Shown: positions 4,961 through 19,620 of the stretch, piece by piece
Position numbering within the stretch: the first letter of the stretch is position 1
Layout of the letters: each line of letters opens with the position of its first letter
NCBI GenBank assembly: GCA_964578845.1
Contig: CAZOEF010000002.1
Span: 220,696 to 252,695 of the forward strand
Length of the DNA: 32,000 bases
DNA from: Candidatus Woesearchaeota archaeon
Lineage (GTDB): Archaea > Nanobdellota > Nanobdellia > Pacearchaeales > GW2011-AR1
Reading direction: 5' to 3'
Program-made: the position numbers and the translations under genes
Notes under the pieces: model-generated
Seen by the model: the letters and a program-made list of their open reading frames with translations, nothing else
The model's database searches: none
Told to the model about the DNA's origin: nothing

Positions 4961-5239
4961 TTATTTACCTGATAAGATTATTTCTATTCTCGAAGCTAAA
5001 TACTGAGCATCTTCAAAACTGGATGATTGTTCAAAACTGAATGTTAGTCTGCTTCCAGGCAAAGCGCGAGTGCTAATCAAGCCAAAAATATCCCTGGCAT
5101 CATATTCCCCTCTTTCAGGATGGGAAACGTTTACTCTCCCATTATAATTACTTAAAATTTCTATTATCTGTGCAGCCGGAGAAAGATGAAGACCTTCAGG
5201 ACTTAAAACAGGTACAGTAAAATCATATGTATTTTTCAT
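4961..5239 (-). CDS. HPr-like phosphocarrier-domain protein
   Basis: 92 aa. It aligns by eye to E. coli HPr: SPEGLHLSPAAQII versus APNGLHTRPAAQFV (His15 kept, Arg17 replaced by Ser), and ARDIFGL versus AKSLFKL (Asp at the Ser46 position). The ATG overlaps the lig stop codon (ATGA). Confidence 0.6.
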   Translation of the reverse strand: MKNTYDFTVPVLSPEGLHLSPAAQIIEILSNYNGRVNVSHPERGEYDARDIFGLISTRALPGSRLTFSFEQSSSFEDAQYLASRIEIILSGK

Positions 5240-5252
5240 CCTAATCCGTTCT
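5236..5252. repeat. 17-bp direct repeat, copy B (TCATCCTAATCCGTTCT)
   Basis: Identical to 4923..4939. It covers the last five codons plus the stop of lig and the ATG of the HPr-like ORF. Confidence 0.9.
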
Positions 5253-6945
5253 TCCTTGTCTTCTGCATTCTCAAAAACTCTTTCTTTATATCTTCCACTG
5301 TTGCGATATCATGCACTCCCCTTTCAGGGCGGTAATGGGTGATTTTAGGAAAGCGTAATGCATACCCTGAACTGTAAGTCGGGCTTGGCTGCACATTCTG
5401 GTAAGTGACAGATACAACGATTTTAGGCTTTACTGTAACCTGGTTTCCTTTCGTTCTTGTGACTAGCGGCTGCAATAATTTATCCATCTCTTTGTAAGTT
5501 ATTCCCTCTTCTCCTTCTTTCTCCTTAAGTCCTGAAGAAGCCTTTCCCACCTCGACAAATTCCTTGTTCCCGTTCTTGCAGGCTAAAATGAAACTTGTTA
5601 ATCCTCCAGATCTCTTACCAGTTCCGTATTCTGCACCGACAATAACTAGATCCAGATCCTTGGCTTCAGGCTTCATCTTCACCATGAAACCTACTCTTCG
5701 TCCAGGCCTGTAAGGAGCATTTAGATTTTTCATCATTATTCCTTCCTCGCCTGTTTTTAATGCATCCTTATAGAATTTCTCGACTTCTTTTTCATTATCA
5801 GTTACAAATTGTGTGGAGTGCCTTATCTTCCATTTTTCAGGCCTGACAACTTTTTCTAAAAGTTTTCTCCTCTCCTTGAATGGCTTGTCGATCTGGCTAT
5901 CACCGTTCCAGAAAATAATATCGAAGACATTTATCTCAACAGGAAGTTTCTTTATTATCTGGTCAATGTCATACTTCCTTCTTATCCTCTGGCTTATTGC
6001 CTCAAACGGCTTGTATTCTTTTTTATTTGGGTCATATCCTACAACTTCAGAATCTAAAACAAAGCTCTTCCCATTCACATGTTTCTTGATAATCTCAACT
6101 ACATCAGGGAATTGTTTAGTAACATTATCTAGTTTACGCGTAAATAAGCTGACATTCTTCCCATCATAGTTTATCAATACTCTAAAGCCGTCATACTTAT
6201 GCTCAACAGCTAAAGGCTTTCCGCAAATCCTAAAACCCTCAGATAAATCAGTCACTTTAACAGGAAGCATGACTTTGATTGGCTTGCCAGGGATTACCTC
6301 AACTTTATTCAATGCTTTTTTTCCTTTAGTTGCTAATTCCAATATCATAGCGAAATCATTCACTTTATCATAAGCTGATTCGATTAATTCAGTAGCTTCT
6401 TTATCCTCTCCGAAAAAGCTCTTTGCTATTGAATCCCTAAGTATAGCGTCAGCCACACCCACTCTTAGATCATTAAGCAATGTCCTGACAATGTACTTAG
6501 CCTCGCTTCCTGAGGATGAAGTCAATAATTCTATAACTAAAGCCAGTTTCTTGTCAACTGCCCCTTTCCCTTCAATAGTTGCCAAATTCCTCAAATTAGT
6601 AAATACTTTGTCAACACTTAGTTTTTTAGTGAATAATGTTGACTGCTGTTTTTTCCCTATCAGTTCTTCAGCTATCTCCCCTAAATCTCCGATCTTATTG
6701 AATTTCTGGACGATTTTCTCATTACTATTTCCTGTTGCCCTTTCAATGGCTTTTATCACTAGCTGCGTTGAGATCCCAAATTCGCTCTCGTCATAATCAG
6801 GAAAAACTCTTCCCCTGAGCAAGTAAACCAATTCTTCGTGCCCTTTTAATTTAGGAAGGAATTTAGAAAGTATCTCGATCTTCTCGAGTTTCTTTGTAGT
6901 AGAAGCTAATTCATCGTATACTTTTATGAAATCTATATACTGCAT
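5236..6945 (-). CDS. lig: ATP-dependent DNA ligase
   Basis: It has the adenylation motif EHKYDGFRV (KxDG) and an OB-fold region, and its length is typical of archaeal ligases. The ORF-track start at 6960 is TTG, so I trimmed to the first ATG (rc of 6943-6945, MQYIDFIK...). A TATA-like TTAAATA (rc of 6967-6973) lies about 22 nt upstream. Confidence 0.9.
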   Translation of the reverse strand: MQYIDFIKVYDELASTTKKLEKIEILSKFLPKLKGHEELVYLLRGRVFPDYDESEFGISTQLVIKAIERATGNSNEKIVQKFNKIGDLGEIAEELIGKKQQSTLFTKKLSVDKVFTNLRNLATIEGKGAVDKKLALVIELLTSSSGSEAKYIVRTLLNDLRVGVADAILRDSIAKSFFGEDKEATELIESAYDKVNDFAMILELATKGKKALNKVEVIPGKPIKVMLPVKVTDLSEGFRICGKPLAVEHKYDGFRVLINYDGKNVSLFTRKLDNVTKQFPDVVEIIKKHVNGKSFVLDSEVVGYDPNKKEYKPFEAISQRIRRKYDIDQIIKKLPVEINVFDIIFWNGDSQIDKPFKERRKLLEKVVRPEKWKIRHSTQFVTDNEKEVEKFYKDALKTGEEGIMMKNLNAPYRPGRRVGFMVKMKPEAKDLDLVIVGAEYGTGKRSGGLTSFILACKNGNKEFVEVGKASSGLKEKEGEEGITYKEMDKLLQPLVTRTKGNQVTVKPKIVVSVTYQNVQPSPTYSSGYALRFPKITHYRPERGVHDIATVEDIKKEFLRMQKTRKNGLG

Positions 6946-6980
6946 ATCTGCCAAAAGCAAAAAGCGTATTTAACCTTTTG

Positions 6981-6989
6981 CCAGTTTGG
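6981..6989. repeat. target-site duplication, left copy (CCAGTTTGG)
   Basis: It directly abuts the left terminal inverted repeat and is identical to 12309..12317 in direct orientation. Confidence 0.8.
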
Positions 6990-7004
6990 GGCTTTGCACA
7001 ATAA
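6990..7004. repeat. left terminal inverted repeat
   Basis: GGCTTTGCACAATAA is the exact reverse complement of 12294..12308. The transposase stop codon follows immediately at 7005-7007. Confidence 0.85.
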
Positions 7005-8123
7005 CTAAACCCCTTTTTGTGCAGGAAAGGCTTTAACGATTTGCGAAAAATCAAACTCAATTTTAAGCTCAAACATTTCGTGAATAAGAACCACGATATT
7101 ATGTGCTAATACCTTGCAGAGAATCTCATTGTTTTGGCTTCTATCAGATTTGCATCTACAACTATCTCCAAATTTTCTCTTAATCATCGCAAAACAGGTT
7201 TCTACATTACTCCTCTTATGGTAGTGTTCGGCAAATTCTAGGTAGTTTTGGGTAAACAATTTGAACATCTTAGCCCAAGTTGGAGAGCCTCTTGCTTTTC
7301 CCGTCACATTGGATTTGAAAGGAATGTAAGGCATTGCTCCAAGTTCTTTAGCTAACTCAAGGTTATCTCTTGATGAATAAGCCTTGTCTGCTGTGACTTC
7401 TTTAATGTCAAAATGTTCTGCTGTTTGTCTAAGTAATGGTTCAAACATAGTTGAATCTCCTATGTTGCCTTTGGTTATTTCTACAGCAGTGATTACATTA
7501 GTTTTAACGCCACAGAGAACATGTGCTTTCTTGTATTTGCCGAGAGGAGACTTTATTCTATGTTTAATGTCCAACCACCTGTCAAATCTTTGTGTTCCAA
7601 ACCCTGTTGAATCAACTGCAAATCTCTTTTCAATGTGTTTAAGAGGTAATGCGGAAATATTGATGAGATAATGAAGTATCATTCTCATTCCACTATCATC
7701 AAAATAGTTCAGGACCGTATTGAAGTGCGGAACGTCTTGAATATATCCTGCTCTCTTTGCAAGTTCTAAATCCGAGATTAATCTTCTTGAAGAAGTATTT
7801 GTATAAATCTTTATCATAGAGCAAAAAATCATATCTCTCAAGGATTTACGAGGCCTTCCAAAAGTGTATGTTCTTTTTGGAACTACATTTAACAGCTCAG
7901 CAAGAAGTTTGTAAAAGATTAGTTTCTCCTTTGTTTGTGCTTGATTGTATTCGGCCCATTGCTGAGTGTGGACTTTATTCTGAGTCAAATTATGATATTC
8001 CATCTGATTATGCTCTAACGAACTAGAAGGAGGTATCTGTAACTCTGAACTGCTTTTTTCAGTCTTCGGAAACGAGTCCGAAAAATCTTTATACTTATCT
8101 TTTCTATTGTTTTTGGAATTCAT
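7005..8123 (-). CDS. IS4-family DDE transposase
   Basis: The DDE candidates are AVDSTGF, TADKAYSS and NVETCF. HYHKRSNVETCFAMIKRKFG fits the IS4 signature Y-(2)-R-(3)-E-(6)-K exactly. The ORF-track start at 8264 is TTG and its first 47 residues (G/P/R-rich) are atypical, so I trimmed to the ATG at 8123 (MNSKNNRK...). Confidence 0.85.
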   Translation of the reverse strand: MNSKNNRKDKYKDFSDSFPKTEKSSSELQIPPSSSLEHNQMEYHNLTQNKVHTQQWAEYNQAQTKEKLIFYKLLAELLNVVPKRTYTFGRPRKSLRDMIFCSMIKIYTNTSSRRLISDLELAKRAGYIQDVPHFNTVLNYFDDSGMRMILHYLINISALPLKHIEKRFAVDSTGFGTQRFDRWLDIKHRIKSPLGKYKKAHVLCGVKTNVITAVEITKGNIGDSTMFEPLLRQTAEHFDIKEVTADKAYSSRDNLELAKELGAMPYIPFKSNVTGKARGSPTWAKMFKLFTQNYLEFAEHYHKRSNVETCFAMIKRKFGDSCRCKSDRSQNNEILCKVLAHNIVVLIHEMFELKIEFDFSQIVKAFPAQKGV

Positions 8124-8250
8124 TTGCGTGGGTTCCTGGGGACTTCGGTCCCCATTAATGATTATGGGCGTAAGAAAGGAGCACCTTGTCCTCAGGGCAT
8201 GTGTTGTTTGGTAACCTCCCCCGACCTTCGGGGGTGCTACCTTCCCTACA
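8124..8250 (-). ncRNA. GC-rich structured leader or ncRNA upstream of the transposase ATG
   Basis: A hand count gives 66 G+C in 120 nt (8131-8250), against visibly AT-rich flanks. The hairpins are GGGGAC-ttcg-GTCCCC (8138-8153) and CCCCCGA-cct-TCGGGGG (8218-8234). A 16-bp long-range helix pairs 8170-8185 with 8233-8249. Read on the minus strand it has 14 Watson-Crick pairs, 2 G-U pairs and one bulged U. On the plus strand the two G-U pairs become A-C mismatches. Confidence 0.4.
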
Positions 8251-8268
8251 AAAAAACTACGCAATTAG

Positions 8269-8372
8269 GGTTTAAATAGTTTACTATGGTGTATATTAAA
8301 CCAATCTAAACCATAATCTGGGTGAAAAAAGGTATTAGTACTGAATGGTTTAGGAAAGATTTATTAAAACCA
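8269..8372. promoter_or_regulatory. iteron-like (T)TAAACC(A) repeats in the transposase / ParB-like divergent region
   Basis: The copies are at 8269-8275 (rc), 8296-8303, 8306-8313 (10 bp from the previous copy), 8346-8352 (rc) and 8364-8372 (one extra A). Confidence 0.35.
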
Positions 8373-8388
8373 ATTACTAAAATGTTCT

Positions 8389-9393
8389 ATGGTAAAGAAG
8401 GAAGAACTCAAAATAAATTTTGAGACGACTGCTGCCGACGTTAAATTAGACGATTTAAAATTAGATTTAAATAATGTGCGGTTTCAACATTTCTCCAAGC
8501 AGATTTCTGATAAAGAAATGGATAAATTAATTTGGGATGAGCCAGGTACAAAAGAATTGTATGAGCAGATAAAATCAGCAAAGGGTCTATACGAAGAACC
8601 GATAATTGACTCTAATAATGTGGTTCTTGAAGGCAACAGAAGAGTGGTGTGTCTAAGAAAGCTTCGCCAGAAAGTCATTGATGGAGAGCTTCAGGGTTTT
8701 GAAAAAGATGCATTCAAAATAATCAAATGTAGGATGATTCCAGGACATATCTCTGATATGGATAAAAGTCTTCTTTTAGCAACCATCCATGTAAAAGGAA
8801 AGAAACAGTGGCCTGCTTTTAACAAAGCGAAACAAATACATGATTTATATAGAACATACAATATCAGCTACGATAACCTAGCAAAATATCTTGGTATGGG
8901 AAAGATTACTGTTATTAGAATGGTTAAGGCATACGAACAAACTTACAAATATGGTCAAAAATATCCTGATGATAAAGCATGGTATAGAAAATATACTTAC
9001 TTTGATGAGCTTTTCAAAAAGAGAGACTTACAAAACTTTGTTAAAATTCAAGCAAACATTGACAAGTTTGCTAAGTGGGTGAGAGATGGAAAGTTTGATG
9101 ATGTACGAGACATTCGTGCGTTAGCTCAAATAATGGAAGATGAAGATGCGATGCAACGCTTTGAGACTCATGGTTTTAAGGAAGCATTTGAATTATTACA
9201 AGAAAAAAATCCTGTTTTGAGGAGTAGAGAATTTAAACAAATTCAGAAAACAATAGAAACTATTAGTTCCTTTCCAAGAAAAGAGTTAATAAAAACTCTA
9301 ACGGACCCAAGGAGAAAAAAGATAATTCGTAAATTAAAGGAGGAGATTGACTCTTTGGTTAGAGATATAGATGCTTTAGAAAAAGAGGAGTAA
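8389..9393 (+). CDS. ParB/Srx-fold N-domain plus HTH protein (ParB-like, no ParA partner)
   Basis: LDLNNVRF...LYEQIKSAKGLYEEPIID...VVLEGNRRVVCLRKL gives the ParB N-domain with a GxxRR box (8632-8643). It is followed by an HTH-like stretch, ISYDNLAKYLGMGKITVIRMVKAY, and a helical C-terminus. Confidence 0.7.
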   Translation: MVKKEELKINFETTAADVKLDDLKLDLNNVRFQHFSKQISDKEMDKLIWDEPGTKELYEQIKSAKGLYEEPIIDSNNVVLEGNRRVVCLRKLRQKVIDGELQGFEKDAFKIIKCRMIPGHISDMDKSLLLATIHVKGKKQWPAFNKAKQIHDLYRTYNISYDNLAKYLGMGKITVIRMVKAYEQTYKYGQKYPDDKAWYRKYTYFDELFKKRDLQNFVKIQANIDKFAKWVRDGKFDDVRDIRALAQIMEDEDAMQRFETHGFKEAFELLQEKNPVLRSREFKQIQKTIETISSFPRKELIKTLTDPRRKKIIRKLKEEIDSLVRDIDALEKEE

Positions 9394-9407
9394 ATCTAAA
9401 ATGCAAA

Positions 9408-10253
9408 ATGAAAATCCCAACAATAAAAAGTCCGCTTCGTTACCCTGGAGGAAAATCTAAGGCTCTGAAAAAGATACTTCCAATTATCTTGGATTTTGAT
9501 GAGTTCAGAGAACCGATGGTCGGAGGCGGCTCTGTTTTTTTTGCATTGAAGCAAAAATATCCTAATAAGAAATATTGGATAAACGATATAAACAAAGATT
9601 TAATTTTGTTTTATCAATATTACCAGAAAGAACCAACTAAACTAATAAATGAAATCAAAACAATAAAAAAGAAACGCCCTAATGGAAAAGTTCTGTACTC
9701 AAACCTTATAAAAAATTCTGATAATCTTGAGGAGTTTCAAAGAGCAACAAGATTTTTTATTCTTAATAGAGTAACTTTTTCTGGATTAACTGAAGCAGGA
9801 GGATATTCCGAAGAGGCTTTCGTGAAGAGATTTACAGACTCTTCAATACAAAGACTGTCTGAAGCTTCTGATTTACTAAAGGGTATCAAGATAACTAACA
9901 AAGATTATTCCGATGCCCTAAAAGAAAGTGGAGGTAATGTTTTCATATTCCTTGACCCACCATACATGTCAAATTCAAAATCTAAACTATATGGAAAAAG
10001 GGGGTGTTTCCATGAAGGTTTTGACCACAAGAATTTTGCAGAAGATATGAAAAGATGCAAACATAAGTGGTTAATAACATACGATGATACTCCAGAAGTT
10101 AGGAAATTATTTTCTTTTGCAAATATTTACAAATGGAAATTGCAGTATTCTATGAAAAATCATAATGGTAATGGAAACCCAAAAGGTAAAGAATTATTTA
10201 TCTGTAATTTTAAGGTTCCACTAGAGGTAAGAAAACTTTTTGTTCAAATATGA
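9408..10253 (+). CDS. N6-adenine DNA methyltransferase, Dam/D12 class
   Basis: LRYPGGKSK near the N-terminus, the SAM-binding motif EPMVGGGSVFF, and the catalytic FLDPPY motif. Confidence 0.85.
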   Translation: MKIPTIKSPLRYPGGKSKALKKILPIILDFDEFREPMVGGGSVFFALKQKYPNKKYWINDINKDLILFYQYYQKEPTKLINEIKTIKKKRPNGKVLYSNLIKNSDNLEEFQRATRFFILNRVTFSGLTEAGGYSEEAFVKRFTDSSIQRLSEASDLLKGIKITNKDYSDALKESGGNVFIFLDPPYMSNSKSKLYGKRGCFHEGFDHKNFAEDMKRCKHKWLITYDDTPEVRKLFSFANIYKWKLQYSMKNHNGNGNPKGKELFICNFKVPLEVRKLFVQI

Positions 10254-10254
10254 T

Positions 10255-10286
10255 TTTGTGCAAATGGATATAGGAGATTGCACAAA
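10255..10286. promoter_or_regulatory. palindrome TTTGTGCAA-n14-TTGCACAAA between the two MTase genes
   Basis: The 9-bp perfect arms are at 10255-10263 and 10278-10286, starting 2 nt after the Dam-class stop codon. The core TTGTGCAA is the same as in the transposon TIRs. Confidence 0.5.
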
Positions 10287-10338
10287 TTAAATAGTAATTG
10301 CTAGAAAATAATAAATACCTTTACTACAAGAATAGATT

Positions 10339-11298
10339 ATGGACACAAGAAAAGAGATGAAAGTTGTTGATTTGTTCTGCGGTGCAGGAGGGCTGTCTTT
10401 GGGTTTAGCTCAGGCTGGTTTTAAGATAGTAGCAGCCTATGATAATTGGAAAAAAGCAATAGAAACGTACAAGAGAAATTTTAATCACAGCAATATTAAA
10501 GTTTTAGATTTAACCCAATTAAAGGATAAAAACCATCCTGAAATACTTGAAATTAAAAAAATTAATCCAGAAATAGTTGTTGGGGGACCACCTTGTCAGG
10601 ATTTTAGTTCTGCTGGAAAAAGAAATGGCGATGGGGAAAGAGGCAACCTAACCCCTCTCTTTGCAGAAATTGTAGTAGCTATCTCTCCAGAATGGGCTGT
10701 GATGGAAAATGTAAATACTATTAAATCAACTGGTGAGGAACAACTAAAGAAAGCTAAAAAGACCCTCCATGAAGCAGGATATGGTATTTCAACCATGGTC
10801 TTAAATGCTGCAGATTTTGGAGCTCCTCAAAATCGCAAGAGATTCTTTCTTATAGCTAGAAAGGGTGGAAAAGATGGCGAGATGGAAGAGTACATAAAGA
10901 GACAAAAAAAACAAAAGATAAGTGTAAAAGATTATTTCTCATCACTCGGAGATAACCTTGGAGGTTTTCAACACTATTACCGTCATCCAAGAAGTTACGG
11001 TAGGAGAGCTATCTTTAGTATAGATGAACTCAGCCCTACAATAAGAGGAGTAAGTCGTCCAATGCCTAAAAATTATAAGTTTCATAAAGGAGATACCATA
11101 AAAAATAGAAATAAAATAATGGTAATGAATTCTGAACAAAGAGCTACAGTCCAAACTTTCCCAAAGGACTTTGAATGGATTGGAGTAAAGTCAGAAGTTG
11201 AACTTCAAATAGGTAATTCCGTCCCTCCTGTTTTGGCTTCAGCTATAGCCAAAGCGATTAAAGATTACGAAAAGAGCAACATATCAAATTATATCTAA
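10339..11298 (+). CDS. DNA (cytosine-5) methyltransferase
   Basis: All the canonical motifs are present in order: I DLFCGAGG, IV GGPPCQDFS, VI ENV, VIII QNRKRFF, X GNSVPP. Confidence 0.9.
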   Translation: MDTRKEMKVVDLFCGAGGLSLGLAQAGFKIVAAYDNWKKAIETYKRNFNHSNIKVLDLTQLKDKNHPEILEIKKINPEIVVGGPPCQDFSSAGKRNGDGERGNLTPLFAEIVVAISPEWAVMENVNTIKSTGEEQLKKAKKTLHEAGYGISTMVLNAADFGAPQNRKRFFLIARKGGKDGEMEEYIKRQKKQKISVKDYFSSLGDNLGGFQHYYRHPRSYGRRAIFSIDELSPTIRGVSRPMPKNYKFHKGDTIKNRNKIMVMNSEQRATVQTFPKDFEWIGVKSEVELQIGNSVPPVLASAIAKAIKDYEKSNISNYI

Positions 11299-12245
11299 CT
11301 TTCATCTAACTCCATGTTAGCAAGAGTAAAAATTATACTGGCATCTAGCCTTCTTTCAGGGCTTAATTGCTTTATAGAGTCTGGCAAGACTATTTTTTGT
11401 AGCTCAGAAAAATTCAGCCTAGGAGCACTGTATATTTTTCCCAACTCTGGTTTGTGCTCAAAAGGATAAAGAGTAATTTTTAGGTGGTCTCTACTGCCTT
11501 CTGAATCTCCTAAATAAGTTATCTTGTCAGAATTCTTAAATTCTTTAATCCAACTGAGAATTTGGTCTACAACTCTGCCGATTCTAGTTTTTATCATTGT
11601 TCCACGAGAAGTTTTCTCATGGGTTGAATTCAAAAGAATTTTAAGATACGCCAAATCTGTGATAGCAACAACATCAAGAGAGTTTTTTTGGTCAATCCTA
11701 GAATCATGGTTAACAGTTTTCCAAATACCATGTAGAATAAATAAGTCTTGATTTTTCTCTTGTTTTGTTAAAATGCTCTTTAGTTCAGATATTGAAGGAT
11801 TTTTACTTAGGTATCTCCCAAATTTGTAGCAAAGTCTTTCAGCAAAATTGAATTGTGTATTTTGTCTGACAATCATTTCAGTAACTTTACTCTCCGCGTG
11901 TGTCGGAACCACTGTGAGCTTAATCTCAAATTCCAGTAAGAATTTATCTCCTAAGGAAGCCCCCATATCAACACCTGGAGCCCTTCTACTTTTAGAATAA
12001 GAAGGATTTCTGCATTCACTTCCCCAAACAATTTCCTTCAATTTGTCTTTTTTAGTTCCAATTAGCTCACTAAAAAACCTTTCCTCTATCTTTAATTCGC
12101 CAGAACCTACCGAAAGCACTGGAAGTCTCAAATTCTTGTCCTCCAAGAATATTGACGCAGATACTGGAACGTAGGTTGTAAATATGTTTTTTGTTAGAAC
12201 CGTGCTAACATTTGTGTTTTTTACTCCGTATAACTCTTCCGCCAT
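11295..12245 (-). CDS. putative type II restriction endonuclease (PD-(D/E)XK candidate)
   Basis: It is convergent with the C5 MTase and the stop codons overlap by 4 bp. GVDMG(D93)...LLEFE(107)IK(109) fits D-x13-E-x-K. No family was recognised from memory, and the specificity is unknown. Confidence 0.5.
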   Translation of the reverse strand: MAEELYGVKNTNVSTVLTKNIFTTYVPVSASIFLEDKNLRLPVLSVGSGELKIEERFFSELIGTKKDKLKEIVWGSECRNPSYSKSRRAPGVDMGASLGDKFLLEFEIKLTVVPTHAESKVTEMIVRQNTQFNFAERLCYKFGRYLSKNPSISELKSILTKQEKNQDLFILHGIWKTVNHDSRIDQKNSLDVVAITDLAYLKILLNSTHEKTSRGTMIKTRIGRVVDQILSWIKEFKNSDKITYLGDSEGSRDHLKITLYPFEHKPELGKIYSAPRLNFSELQKIVLPDSIKQLSPERRLDASIIFTLANMELDES

Positions 12246-12293
12246 AAAAAAAGATGTAATTTAAGATATTTAGACTTTTTGTGCAAGAACTAC

Positions 12294-12308
12294 TTATTGT
12301 GCAAAGCC
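12294..12308. repeat. right terminal inverted repeat
   Basis: TTATTGTGCAAAGCC is the exact reverse complement of 6990..7004. A second TTGTGCAA lies 14 bp inboard at 12283-12290. Confidence 0.85.
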
Positions 12309-12317
12309 CCAGTTTGG
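12309..12317. repeat. target-site duplication, right copy (CCAGTTTGG)
   Basis: It directly abuts the right TIR and is identical to 6981..6989. Confidence 0.8.
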
Positions 12318-12323
12318 AAAAGA

Positions 12324-12331
12324 TTTTTAAA
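12324..12331 (+). promoter_or_regulatory. TATA box of the HEAT-repeat gene
   Basis: TTTTTAAA lies 23 nt upstream of the ATG at 12354, which is leaderless-type spacing. It is outside the transposon. Confidence 0.45.
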
Positions 12332-12353
12332 CACTCAAGAAAAAATCTGTCTA

Positions 12354-12803
12354 ATGGGACACACACTATCTAAGCACTTGCCTGAAATATCAGACGAAAG
12401 ACTCAAGGAGCTACTAGAATATAACTGGAGGAATGTCAACCATAATGTTGAGCAGTTCTATAATGAATCAACCTGGCCAATGCTTGCTGATATAATTCTT
12501 TATCACCCTAACCAGATTGTAAGGCACGAAGCGTCCTATAACGCAGGAGATCTGAATTTGGTTGAATTTATCCCTATCCTGATCAAGGCTGTAAAATATG
12601 ATCCATCTATCGTAGCAAAGCACGAAGCTGCTGAAGCCCTGGGTTTTATGACAGGAGAAAAAGCCAAAGAGGGTTTAGAACTCCTTAAAAAAATAGTAAA
12701 TAAAGAGCCTGGCTTTGATGAATTAGTCTACCACGATGACGTCATAAAGACCGCAGAAGCTTCTGTTCAATTGCTTGAGAAAAATCTAAATATAATCAAT
12801 TAA
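12354..12803 (+). CDS. HEAT (PBS-lyase type) repeat protein
   Basis: It has repeated ...VRHEASYNAGDL... and ...VAKHEAAEALGFM... units. The ORF-track start at 12279 is TTG and reads across the transposon TIR, so I trimmed to the ATG at 12354. Confidence 0.6.
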   Translation: MGHTLSKHLPEISDERLKELLEYNWRNVNHNVEQFYNESTWPMLADIILYHPNQIVRHEASYNAGDLNLVEFIPILIKAVKYDPSIVAKHEAAEALGFMTGEKAKEGLELLKKIVNKEPGFDELVYHDDVIKTAEASVQLLEKNLNIIN

Positions 12804-13176
12804 TAAAAACACATTCCAACTCTTTTATATCTTTAAAATCATTATCTTTAGTAACTAAAATTCCCCTTTCTTCATGAACATGAGATGCTATCAAAAGATC
12901 TGCTAAAGGAAGTTCATATTTTTGTTTAAGTTCAACTAGTATACTTGCAGTTTCCTTGGATGTCTGAATAACTCCAAATTTCTCAAGGAATTCCAAGGAT
13001 TTGCGCTTATTTTTTTCAGATTTATTCCTTAGCCCATATAAAAATTCAAAATAAGAAATAAAGCTTATTTTTGCAGGAGTAGGGTAGATGTCTTTAAGTT
13101 CAGATATCTTATTAATTACTGCCTTATTACCTCTGTCAAGTTCAATCAAGATAGATGTATCAAAAATCAGGTACAT
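12796..13176 (-). CDS. vapC: PIN-domain toxin VapC
   Basis: The acidic residues are placed as in PIN domains: MYLIFDTSILIELDRG, a mid-protein E, and VTKDNDF near the C-terminus. It overlaps the upstream antitoxin ORF by 17 nt. Confidence 0.8.
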   Translation of the reverse strand: MYLIFDTSILIELDRGNKAVINKISELKDIYPTPAKISFISYFEFLYGLRNKSEKNKRKSLEFLEKFGVIQTSKETASILVELKQKYELPLADLLIASHVHEERGILVTKDNDFKDIKELECVFIN

Positions 13177-13414
13177 TCCTAAATCCCCTTTCTTTTCTTA
13201 ATTCCTTTACGCTTTTATGCATATCCTCTGCATCTTTATCAGAGATCCTCCTCTCACCACTTAAGATTTCATCCCAAAATTCTTCAGTTTTCTTTTCATA
13301 CTCCTCAACCATATTCTCAAATAAATCGCCCATGCTGACCCGTTTTCTAGCAGCTAATTCCTTGAATCTCAGCCATTTATCTCTATCAATGCCTCTGATT
13401 GTTCTTATACTCAT
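13160..13414 (-). CDS. vapB: ribbon-helix-helix antitoxin (VapB-like)
   Basis: 84 aa. MSIRTIRGIDRDKWLRFKELAARKRVSMGDLFENMV has a beta-strand/helix/helix pattern. It sits upstream of vapC and overlaps it. Confidence 0.6.
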   Translation of the reverse strand: MSIRTIRGIDRDKWLRFKELAARKRVSMGDLFENMVEEYEKKTEEFWDEILSGERRISDKDAEDMHKSVKELRKERGFRNVPDF

Positions 13415-13415
13415 A

Positions 13416-13438
13416 ATGTATTACATTAATACATGTAT
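13416..13438. promoter_or_regulatory. overlapping palindromes upstream of vapB (candidate operator)
   Basis: ATGTATTA-cat-TAATACAT spans 13416-13434 and the self-complementary ATACATGTAT spans 13429-13438. Both lie directly upstream of the vapB ATG (13412-13414). Confidence 0.4.
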
Positions 13439-13468
13439 TTAAATATTACTATCAGAAATGGGACACTT

Positions 13469-19101: not shown

Positions 19102-19620
19102 TTAATCTTCACCAATATACATTTCATAAAGGCCTGATTGCTTAGCTTCTTCATATAGCCTGCGTAAGGCTATCTTCTCTATCCTGTATATATTTTGATG
19201 TGTAAAGCCTAGCTCTAGCCCTATTTGCCTGCTGGTCTTTCCTTCATAAAATCTGGCGATTATGACTGCTGCATATTTTTCAGGCAGGATTTGGATAATT
19301 TCCTTTAATTTAATGATCAAATCTTGAGTATAAGTCCTCTTAGTTTCTAAATACATTTGGTCTATCACATCATCATCTGTACATTCAATAGTTTGTTCAG
19401 GCGGATGGAATCTCCGATTATTCAGCCATGCGTTATATTCTGGGTAAGAATCAAATCCCTTTCTCATTGCTAAGAATGTTAGAAGATCGGCGTGATCATT
19501 AAATCCTCGAAGGGTCGCTAAAAACTCGCGATAATCTCCTGAAGCCATGTTGGATTCAAACCAATTCCTGATGCCCTGGCCATATAATTTCCAGTCCCCT
19601 GTCCTACGTTTCAATTCCAT
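19102..19620 (-). CDS. sigma-70 region-4-like HTH protein
   Basis: The C-terminus LPEKYAAVIIARFYEGKTSRQIGLELGFTHQNIYRIEKIALRRL matches the sigma-70 region 4 / ECF-type HTH consensus. The N-terminal 100 aa are unrecognised. Confidence 0.6.
   Translation of the reverse strand: MELKRRTGDWKLYGQGIRNWFESNMASGDYREFLATLRGFNDHADLLTFLAMRKGFDSYPEYNAWLNNRRFHPPEQTIECTDDDVIDQMYLETKRTYTQDLIIKLKEIIQILPEKYAAVIIARFYEGKTSRQIGLELGFTHQNIYRIEKIALRRLYEEAKQSGLYEMYIGED

Follow-up and report, generated by a model that had tools for sequence, protein, structure and literature searches.

Evidence for an IS903-like unit transposon with restriction-modification cargo in a Woesearchaeota archaeon

Does a transposase gene that lies beside restriction-modification genes carry them along, or do the two merely adjoin? 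This question is raised by a 32,000-nucleotide stretch of a Candidatus Woesearchaeota archaeon (assembly GCA_964578845.1, contig CAZOEF010000002.1, positions 220,696 to 252,695; hereafter, the window), in which a transposase gene and four further genes lie between a DNA ligase gene (lig) and a HEAT-repeat gene. The initial annotation proposed that one transposon moves all five. Here, we find that positions 6990-12308 very probably form an intact, noncomposite (unit) transposon of 5,319 bp, which is IS903-like and belongs to the IS5 family of insertion sequences (IS). The proposal of a single transposon with a transposase and four cargo genes holds, and dozens of relatives have similar ends, a 9-bp duplication, and internal cargo. 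The case is built on what can be read in the DNA: the ends, the duplication, an intact set of catalytic motifs, the identities of the genes by homology, and an architecture common to the whole family.

The boundaries of the element are exact (Table 1). A perfect 15-bp inverted repeat, GGCTTTGCACAATAA, is found on the plus strand at 6990-7004, and its exact reverse complement is found at 12294-12308; these are the terminal inverted repeats of the transposase end (IRR) and of the cargo end (IRL), respectively. Both are abutted on the outside by a perfect 9-bp direct repeat, CCAGTTTGG, at 6981-6989 and 12309-12317, and the positions first reported for the two pairs of repeats were confirmed. When up to 3 mismatches were allowed in the 32-kb window, the 15-mer had a single further match, at 19195 with 3 mismatches, and no further exact copy of the 9-mer was found. 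Given the base composition of the window (36.6% G+C), the expected number of 15-mer copies on both strands was 8e-5, the probability of an identical 9-mer at one fixed position was 2e-6, and the joint chance probability of the 15-bp and 9-bp repeats was far below 1e-9. Chance cannot explain the repeats because of this 15-mer expectation and this 9-mer probability. Nor are they a general intergenic motif, which would have spoken against an element-specific origin, as neither motif recurs exactly in the window.

No end-like sequence was found near the start of the transposase gene. Because the best match within 8000-8500 was only 8/15, the 1.3-kb transposase segment lacks a separate right end; even a degenerate one near 8270 was rejected on the same ground, in agreement with the earlier statement that no second copy of the repeat lies there. 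A single pair of ends encloses one transposase gene and the passenger genes, and the duplication brackets the whole, as in a unit transposon or transporter IS. In addition, a Logan assembly contig from run SRR11843827 was 100% identical to window positions 5139-9678 and therefore confirmed the ligase/transposon (left) junction independently.

The transposase had been labeled IS4-type, with a Y-2-R-3-E-6-K signature. The signature is real: Y301, R304, E308, and K315, together with D171 and D246, were invariant in an alignment of 33 homologues. On its own, it is insufficient for assignment to a family, and when profile models were run, as had been suggested, they gave an IS5-family, IS903-like enzyme instead. 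The best NCBIfam model was NF033579 (IS5 family), at 142.9 bits with a cutoff of 140, versus only 35 bits for the IS4 model; PF01609 (DDE_Tnp_1) was matched at 5.8e-22. The IS903B transposase, fetched from plasmid Rts1, had the same best model, at 356 bits. Identity between the two transposases was 26% over 204 aa (BLASTP), and the closest annotated plasmid IS was likewise about 26% identical. When the profile of the 33 homologues was compared with IS903B, 272 columns were aligned at 95.8% probability (hhalign). The ends of the element matched the IS903B inverted repeat, GGCTTTGTTGAATAA, at 12/15 bases. As reported previously, IS903B has ends of the sequence GGCTTTGTTGAATAAATC and a 9-bp direct repeat (PMC10569121). 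Terminal repeats of this type (12/15 bases), a 9-bp target-site duplication (in the window and in 58 related elements), and an IS5-type DDE transposase are thus all present, and the duplication length, which had been taken to fit IS4, fits IS903 instead. Because of the NF033579 match, the profile alignment with IS903B, the ends, the duplication length, and the invariant residues, the transposase is classed as IS5 family and IS903-like, at a considerable distance. At 5,319 bp and with four further genes, the element exceeds a simple IS, which has a transposase only and a length of about 1 kb; the shortest member of its clade is 2,140 bp.

More than 6,000 homologues of the transposase were found, the closest being 60-79% identical. 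Few of them carry source names; the named closest ones are from Nanoarchaeota, and one more distant homologue is from Woesearchaeota. The open frame extends upstream of the ATG to a TTG at 8264. On the Logan contig, the same 372-aa product was called, and this was the only contig with an exact match to the ATG form; an exact look-up of the 419-aa form starting at the TTG gave no match.

Relatives of the element were compared at 80 loci from GTDB species genomes, the source genome not being among them, and at 27 loci from viral contigs (single loci are denoted by L and a number). The search was blind to the sequence of the ends and called for an exact 9-bp duplication, at least 13/18 inverted-repeat matches, and a length from 900 bp. 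Elements were found around 61 of the 116 related transposase genes, and 58 began with GGCTTTG or a one-base variant of it. As controls, the duplication windows were displaced by 15-40 nt, which gave 3-5 matches, none of them beginning with GGCTTTG. Such ends around other cargo, for which a search had been proposed at the outset, are therefore found with a 9-bp duplication at 58 of the 116 transposase genes. Element lengths ranged from 2,140 to 10,154 bp, and none of the 58 GGCTTTG-type elements was a plain IS. The hosts of the clade are mainly DPANN and other archaea, together with environmental bacteria, and the closest GTDB loci were mostly labeled Nanoarchaeota, Woesearchaeota, or Pacearchaeota.

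In the close (DPANN) subgroup, the transposase gene always abuts IRR, and 1.8-9 kb of cargo lies between the transposase gene and IRL. DNA shared by the window element with its close relatives comprised the first 37-38 nt of IRL (84-100% identical in 9/10, with no match reported for L011) and approximately 980 nt of the transposase gene and IRR (10/10). L008 alone also shares the ParB-like gene and the adjacent control region with the window element at the DNA level.

The cargo of the family consists mostly of restriction-modification and other defense genes. Among 91 cargo proteins of 29 more distant elements, the commonest Pfam families were Eco57I, N6_Mtase, MmeI_Mtase, N6_N4_Mtase, and EcoRI methylase; NgoPII and XcyI endonucleases, DarT, GmrSD, Mrr, and HNH were also present. 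In the close elements, the cargo is a weak endonuclease candidate, a C5 methylase, a ParA-like ATPase, and a DpnII/MboI-type endonuclease in L004; a double D12 methylase in L005; an HNH endonuclease, a C5 methylase, and a Schlafen/AlbA_2 protein in L006; a HEPN protein, an ADP-ribosylglycohydrolase, and a 1,436-aa protein without assigned function in L007; an HNH endonuclease, a C5 methylase, a Cas4-like PD-(D/E)XK nuclease, and a ParB-like protein in L008; an endonuclease split in two reading frames and a C5 methylase in L009; and a papain-like protease with a beta-helix in L011. The C5 methylases of different elements represent different systems, not copies of one, because they are only 29-42% identical.

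Two single loci of the family deserve mention. In L009 (6562-7988), the endonuclease at the first position is divided over two open reading frames (ORFs), one for each half of a single PADLOC REase_II model; the endonuclease may have been inactivated beside a retained C5 methylase, or the split may be a sequencing error. The 4,088-bp contig L070 (1-4088) spans exactly IRL to IRR of one element and may reflect either collapse of a repeat during assembly or excision of a copy.

The ends themselves are in two parts. At IRL, an inner copy of the end motif, TTGCACAAAAAGT, lies 18 nt from the terminal copy as a direct repeat, and at IRR, an inner copy, CTTTTTGTGCAGG, is inverted relative to the terminal copy and overlaps the last transposase codons (PAQK). 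The inner motif of IRR was conserved in 9/11 close (DPANN-subgroup) elements, and L014 and L015 carried CTTATTGTGCA. In distant members (L017, L026, L034, L053, and L062), the inner copy of IRL changed along with the terminal copy, the terminal and inner motifs being GTTGCA and GTTGCA in L017, TTGCTCCT and TTGCTCCT in L034, TTGCCCGA and TTGCCCGA in L053, and TGTTTAA and TGTTTAA in L062. Because the inner and terminal copies covary, each IRL probably holds two putative binding sites for the transposase, for which this covariation argues.

IRL also appears to hold an inward-facing promoter. A TATA-like box, TCTAAATATC, lies between the inner site of IRL and the ATG of the endonuclease gene, which is 48 bp from the terminal 15-mer, and an equivalent box, AAAAAGTCT(T/A)TAA(G/A), was found at the same element position in L004-L009 and L131. 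In the window element, L004, L006, L008, L009, and L131, the ATG of the first cargo gene is nucleotide 64 of the element counted from IRL, and the six first proteins are unrelated. The transcription start predicted from the IRL box would coincide with this ATG at nucleotide 64, which suggests a leaderless or near-leaderless message.

From these features, the following mechanism can be proposed. A single DDE transposase, encoded at the IRR end, would recognize two-part ends, each combining GGCTTTGCACAATAA at the terminus with a repeat of the core TTGCACAA motif further in, direct at IRL and inverted at IRR. The whole segment would have been inserted at a 9-bp staggered cut in the fashion of IS903, leaving the CCAGTTTGG duplication. 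The promoter borne by IRL would then express whichever first cargo gene occupies the variable slot. Both the binding of the transposase to the inner motifs and the promoter function are predicted from comparison of sequences.

Next to IRL, the window element carries a restriction-modification pair. The C5-cytosine DNA methyltransferase scored 223 bits with PF00145, 176.6 bits with TIGR00675, and 1.5e-103 with PADLOC MTase_II. The partner is a Type II restriction endonuclease candidate of the HindVP family (PF09519, 60.9 bits with a cutoff of 25; PADLOC REase_II, 1.2e-12), whose gene is convergent with that of the C5 methylase and overlaps it by 4 bp, so that endonuclease and methyltransferase genes are adjacent, as in Type II systems. 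The enzyme activities and specificities of the cargo are those predicted from homology. Probably, the restriction-modification genes defend the host against foreign DNA and put a cost on losing the element.

The second pair of cargo genes encodes a ParB-fold protein and a D12-class (Dam-family) N6-adenine DNA methyltransferase. The former has an N-terminal ParB/Srx-type domain with an invariant EGNRR, a helix-turn-helix, and a helical C terminus. Its match to Pfam ddrB-ParB was below threshold (22.5 versus 27.6 bits), and no sequence-level PDB match was found with the single sequence or a profile; only fold comparison gave a match. The AlphaFold2 model, built from 48 homologues, had a mean predicted local distance difference test score (pLDDT) of 92, and the top Foldseek matches were Noc, ParB, KorB, Spo0J, and the archaeal pNOB8 ParB, with E values of 4e-5 to 3e-3. 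E81, G82, N83, R84, and R85 were invariant among the homologues, at a position where, presumably, ParB proteins carry the GERRxR-type nucleotide-binding motif. In the fold model, the N-terminal fold, the arginine-rich motif, and the helix-turn-helix follow one another as in the ParB/Srx superfamily. Approximately 100 homologues were found, nearly all of about 335 residues and none with a Pfam assignment; the few named ones were from DPANN or other archaea. The protein resembles the CTP-dependent ParB/KorB/Noc proteins in its predicted N-terminal fold and helix-turn-helix but differs from them in that the element has no ParA partner, the Pfam ParB similarity is below threshold, and a D12 methylase follows.

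The best PADLOC match of the ParB-like protein was PDC-M38A (1.6e-21). PD-Lambda-5_A was matched only by the N-terminal approximately 90 residues of the 334-aa protein, with E values from 2.7e-5, and protein A usually has about 450-500 aa. The Dam-family protein scored 109.6 bits with TIGR00571 "dam," just under the cutoff of 114.85, and matched MTase_II (5e-117) far better than PD-Lambda-5_B (3.5e-37). Membership of the pair in PD-lambda-5 was dropped, the match being too partial. The pair could be a regulator of element genes, similar to KorB, or a defense pair similar to PD-lambda-5.

The backbone of transposase, ParB-like, and D12 methylase genes recurs in at least four other elements, each of which has a different gene set on the IRL side. 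It is found in L131-L133 (5,179 bp; ends and duplication, TGTAAAAAC) and L134 (5,469 bp; ends and duplication, CTTGTTTAT), and in L135, where IRR is at the contig start and an N4/N6 methylase, an MvaI/BcnI endonuclease, and IRL follow. In L136-L139, a ParB-like gene, a 438-aa gene, and a D12 methylase gene occur with no transposase and no ends. Throughout L131-L139, the D12 methylase comes after the ParB-like gene, either directly or one gene on; L008 has the ParB-like gene in common with the window element, not the methylase. Judging from these gene orders, the transposase, ParB-like, and Dam genes are a recurring backbone and the IRL side is a variable slot. The ParB-like/methylase pair is a module in its own right because L136-L139 carry it without a transposase or family ends. 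The four cargo genes had been described as one complete module inside the ends; their location inside the ends stands, and the single module is better split into the ParB-like/Dam backbone and an exchangeable restriction-modification pair. The same gene order without ends, which was to have argued against the element, was found for the ParB-like/Dam pair only, a partial order that leaves the element unrefuted. In L136-L139, the three genes adjoin a thermosome gene (e.g., L136:8001-11409).

Between the divergent transposase and ParB-like genes, repeated GGTTT/AAACC motifs occupy 8265-8388, including an inverted pair, GGTTTAA...TTAAACC, at 8269-8302, and L008 has the same motifs. These repeats are candidate binding sites for the ParB-like protein.

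Several observations weigh against the unit-transposon reading or parts of it. The transposase is barely above the NF033579 cutoff, its close relatives are under it at 113-131 bits, and its place may be beside the IS903 group and not inside it. The endonuclease matches the C-terminal half only of the HindVP model (PF09519). Independent assembly support covers the left junction only and none was found for the right one. The transposase, ParB-like, and ligase sequences were found on one other public contig only, maybe from the same sample, and public data yielded neither an empty site at strain level nor a second copy or an excision product of this element. Synteny is coarse as well: the ligase relatives are only 60% identical, and approximately 1.15 kb beside the element (12318-13468) is also extra.

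How the element came by its present form is a question of origin. A tentative answer, to which we give slightly less than an even chance and which is compatible with the unit-transposon explanation, is that two family members once lay end to end and fused, their inner ends having decayed and only the outer ends being used now. The parts would be a 2.0-kb transposase-less restriction-modification cassette (approximately 10274-12308) and a 3.3-kb transposon with the ParB-like and Dam genes (6990 to approximately 10267), and the latter corresponds to the backbone that L131-L135 have in common. The intergenic region of the Dam-family and C5 (Dcm) methylase genes is precisely where three end-motif copies occur, oriented like an IRR facing an IRL, and one side has the two-part pattern of IRL, with 16 nt between the copies versus 18 nt in the true IRL. 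The 8-mer core TTGCACAA/TTGTGCAA was found only at the true ends and at 10235-10288, with no copies in the 26.7 kb of flanking window. Elsewhere, arrays exist in which family members are separated by exactly 9 bp, i.e., the duplication, and one of them includes a 1.4-kb transposase-less unit. However, the putative relic 15-mers match the true ends at 10/15 and 9/15 only and have lost the terminal GGC, the gap between them is 6 bp and not 9, and internal relics were found in none of the other close elements examined. The copies at 10235-10288 could instead be a binding site for the transposase or a regulator. An internal end-like 15-mer of L131 (10913, 12/15) was judged nonsignificant alone and was not used.

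Head-to-tail arrays, with 9-bp spacers that equal the target duplication and are reused along the array, were seen at L026:7865-7903 and 12220-12258, L082:6494-6532 and 7926-7964, L009:6475-6513, L059:~113-142, L060:~2490-2519, and L073:11011-11049. They suggest insertion beside resident ends or the formation of tandem multimers. Within one of them, L082:6518-7940 is a 1.4-kb unit with the IRL and IRR of the family and no transposase, flanked by two elements that do have one; it has the appearance of a mobile insertion cassette of this family.

Table 1. Coordinates, strands, and assignments of features at the transposon locus (window positions)
Feature	Position	Strand	Remarks
ATP-dependent DNA ligase gene (lig)	5236-6960	-	Flank
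Left target-site duplication, CCAGTTTGG	6981-6989	.	Identical to 12309-12317
IRR, terminal inverted repeat, transposase end, GGCTTTGCACAATAA	6990-7004	+	Transposase stop codon (7005-7007) abuts
DDE transposase, IS5 family, IS903-like	7005-8123	-	372 aa from ATG; PF01609, NF033579
Inner end motif at IRR, CTTTTTGTGCAGG	7013-7025	+	Inverted relative to terminal copy
Divergent control region of transposase and ParB-like genes	8124-8388	.	Repeated GGTTT/AAACC motifs; ~68% DNA identity to L008 region
G+C hairpin GGGGAC-CGAA-GTCCCC, transposase leader	8138-8153	-	Conserved in 6 elements
ParB-fold protein	8389-9393	+	334 aa; AlphaFold2 fold match; weak ddrB-ParB
D12-class (Dam-family) N6-adenine DNA methyltransferase	9408-10253	+	281 aa; PF02086, 2.7e-43
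Putative decayed abutted ends, Dam/Dcm boundary	10235-10288	.	Repeat family D2; presumed relics
Putative relic copy, ACTTTTTGTTCAA	10235-10247		12/13 bases of IRL inner site
Putative relic copy, ATTTTGTGCAAATGG	10253-10267		10/15 bases of IRL
Putative relic copy, GAGATTGCACAAATT	10274-10288		9/15 bases of IRR
C5-cytosine DNA methyltransferase	10339-11298	+	319 aa; PF00145, 8.8e-66
Type II restriction endonuclease candidate, HindVP family	11295-12245	-	316 aa; PF09519
Leader and TATA-like box, TCTAAATATC (12265-12274)	12246-12273	-	Between IRL inner site and endonuclease ATG
Inner end motif at IRL, TTGCACAAAAAGT	12274-12286	-	Direct repeat of terminal copy
IRL, terminal inverted repeat, cargo end	12294-12308	-	Exact reverse complement of 6990-7004
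Right target-site duplication, CCAGTTTGG	12309-12317	.	Identical to 6981-6989
HEAT-repeat gene	12345-12803	+	Flank

In the relatives with the nearest ligases, L083 and L097 (60% identical), radB lies directly upstream of lig at a distance of 38 bp, with no such element between them; in the window, the distance from radB to lig is 6.5 kb, most of which is accounted for by the 5.3-kb element. The in silico empty site is TTAACCTTTTGCCAGTTTGGAAAAGATTTTTAAAC, and the search of public data for an empty site, as proposed in the initial annotation, found none. Look-ups of the ligase and the HEAT protein returned no further contigs and hence no empty site or second copy. A metagenome scan with the ligase gave relatives of no more than 60% identity (64% in one partial match), which left only the radB-lig adjacency usable, since an empty site at the nucleotide level would need closer ones. 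It is unlikely, in our judgment, that the element is real and has become fixed and immobile, with an inactive transposase, and is kept by the host for its defense genes. Such a state would agree with the single copy in the window and with the lack of a polymorphic empty site or second copy in public data, but this lineage is so sparsely represented there that little can be read into missing copies. Moreover, both the terminal repeats and the duplication are free of mismatches, the transposase gene has an unbroken frame that encodes every catalytic residue, and the conserved leader hairpin has been retained. The element is presumed to be mobile at present.

Two minor points concern the same site. 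The HEAT-repeat gene and two small ORFs also intervene in the window (12318-13468) when it is compared with L083:685-3100 and L097:288-2400, and the radB-lig spot may be a recurrent site of gene gain. No tRNA genes or Rfam families were found in the window, so that tRNA-targeted integration and known RNA elements were ruled out.

Tn903 exemplifies the classic route by which IS903 moves cargo, the composite transposon, and a composite ancestor, with two IS copies once flanking the cargo and one later deleted down to its outer end, would follow this route. We consider it very improbable here. There is one transposase gene only, not two IS copies bracketing the cargo, with no trace of a second transposase gene, a second IS, or an internal functional end. 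The terminal 15-mer of IRL is only 48 bp from the endonuclease ATG, and the conserved, specialized two-part IRL with its TATA-like box recurs in about 10 independent elements whose cargo differs and is unlike the remnant of a random deletion. An ordinary 1.3-kb IS beside a pre-existing restriction-modification island, with the distant repeats a coincidence or a general intergenic motif, would suit the single transposase gene of about IS-transposase size, but this explanation is already contradicted, and its probability is close to nil, by the missing end at 8000-8500, by the joint chance probability and nonrecurrence of the repeats, and by the same long-range architecture with a perfect 9-bp duplication at 58 related loci.

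How, then, does the unit transposon compare with known systems? IS903 is approximately 1.06 kb long and has one gene. The window element resembles IS903/IS903B in its NF033579 transposase, the full-length profile alignment, the GGCTTTG...AATAA ends (12/15), and the 9-bp duplication, whereas it is 5.3 kb long with four cargo genes and has two-part ends, the left unlike the right. Transporter IS (tIS) of the IS1595 and IS66 families also have IS-like ends, one transposase, passenger genes inside, and a target duplication. A TnCentral preprint restricts transporter IS to these two families; in contrast, the window element is of the IS5 family, and in its clade, cargo is the rule and not an occasional derivative. 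Restriction-modification units with inverted repeats and 8-bp duplications were described in Xanthomonas oryzae and Neisseria gonorrhoeae; the set they came from had been cleared of mobility-linked systems (Furuta, Abe and Kobayashi 2010; PMC2853133). They share restriction-modification genes inside terminal inverted repeats and a short target duplication with the window element, which differs in having a transposase inside the same ends, a 9-bp duplication, and a large family. Mobile insertion cassettes, which have family ends without a transposase, are resembled by the putative 2.0-kb subunit at 10274-12308 and by L082:6518-7940; unlike them, the window subunit has a decayed inner end and would move only within the larger element. 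Tn7-like transposons have variable cargo rich in restriction-modification and other defense genes and use several transposition proteins and specific attachment sites. The present lineage is similar in its variable cargo dominated by such genes, but the element relies on a single DDE enzyme, without any evident target sequence.

No description of this family was found in the open-access literature; ISfinder, TnPedia, and subscription journals lay outside that search. A 2019 survey of Thaumarchaeota by Krupovic and colleagues placed passenger-gene transposons among the classes undetected in archaea (PMC6563490), and in a 2026 survey of archaeal IS, the word "passenger" is absent and "cargo" occurs in the reference list only. 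The element had been regarded as an unusual vehicle not recognized as a described one. That no description exists in the literature searched agrees with this view, but the element is no one-off: it belongs to a large clade in which cargo is the rule. With about even confidence, we propose that this clade is a sister to IS903 for which no description was found, spread over DPANN and other archaea, many bacterial phyla, and viral contigs, and that it is a dedicated shuttle for defense genes. The same evenly balanced proposal ascribes to the clade a left and a right end that are each in two parts and unlike one another, a portable inward promoter in IRL that sets the first cargo ATG at nucleotide 64, and growth by insertion beside resident ends followed by loss of the inner ends. 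In one sublineage, the ParB-fold/Dam pair might exert epigenetic or KorB-like clamp control of the element, instead of or besides host defense.

If this is true, the element would clearly place a DNA transposon with cargo in archaea, where the class was stated in 2019 to be undetected (PMC6563490). With regard to classification, cargo inside a single pair of IS ends is recognized in few IS families, and the IS903-like lineage described here has it as the normal state in both domains. For DPANN archaea, which have tiny genomes and depend on other cells, the lineage offers a concrete vehicle for exchanging restriction-modification and other defense genes. The architecture suggests how cargo is gained, namely, by insertion beside a resident end and subsequent loss of the inner ends, with expression from the promoter in the end. 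In addition, short defined ends and a single transposase could serve as a tool for archaeal genetics.

Some minor features of the family remain to be described. In L005 and L011, small ORFs lie approximately 250 nt upstream of the transposase gene, and in L007 and L016, small ORFs lie at the same position on the opposite strand. Their predicted products are ribbon-helix-helix-like in L005 and L011 and AbrB-like in L007 and L016, and these ORFs may encode regulators that stand in for the ParB-like gene in the elements concerned. Triple GGTACCGAAA-type repeats adjoin a TATA-like box in L007 and L016.

The leader of the transposase gene contains the conserved G+C hairpin, which lies about 15 nt upstream of the ATG in the window element and 23-31 nt upstream in the relatives. 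Across the 6 elements, compensatory changes were found in 5/7 of its pairs. The hairpin may control translation of the transposase or shield it from read-through transcription. A second, similar G+C hairpin is present at 8216-8236 on the minus strand, and both have a C-GAA-G loop.

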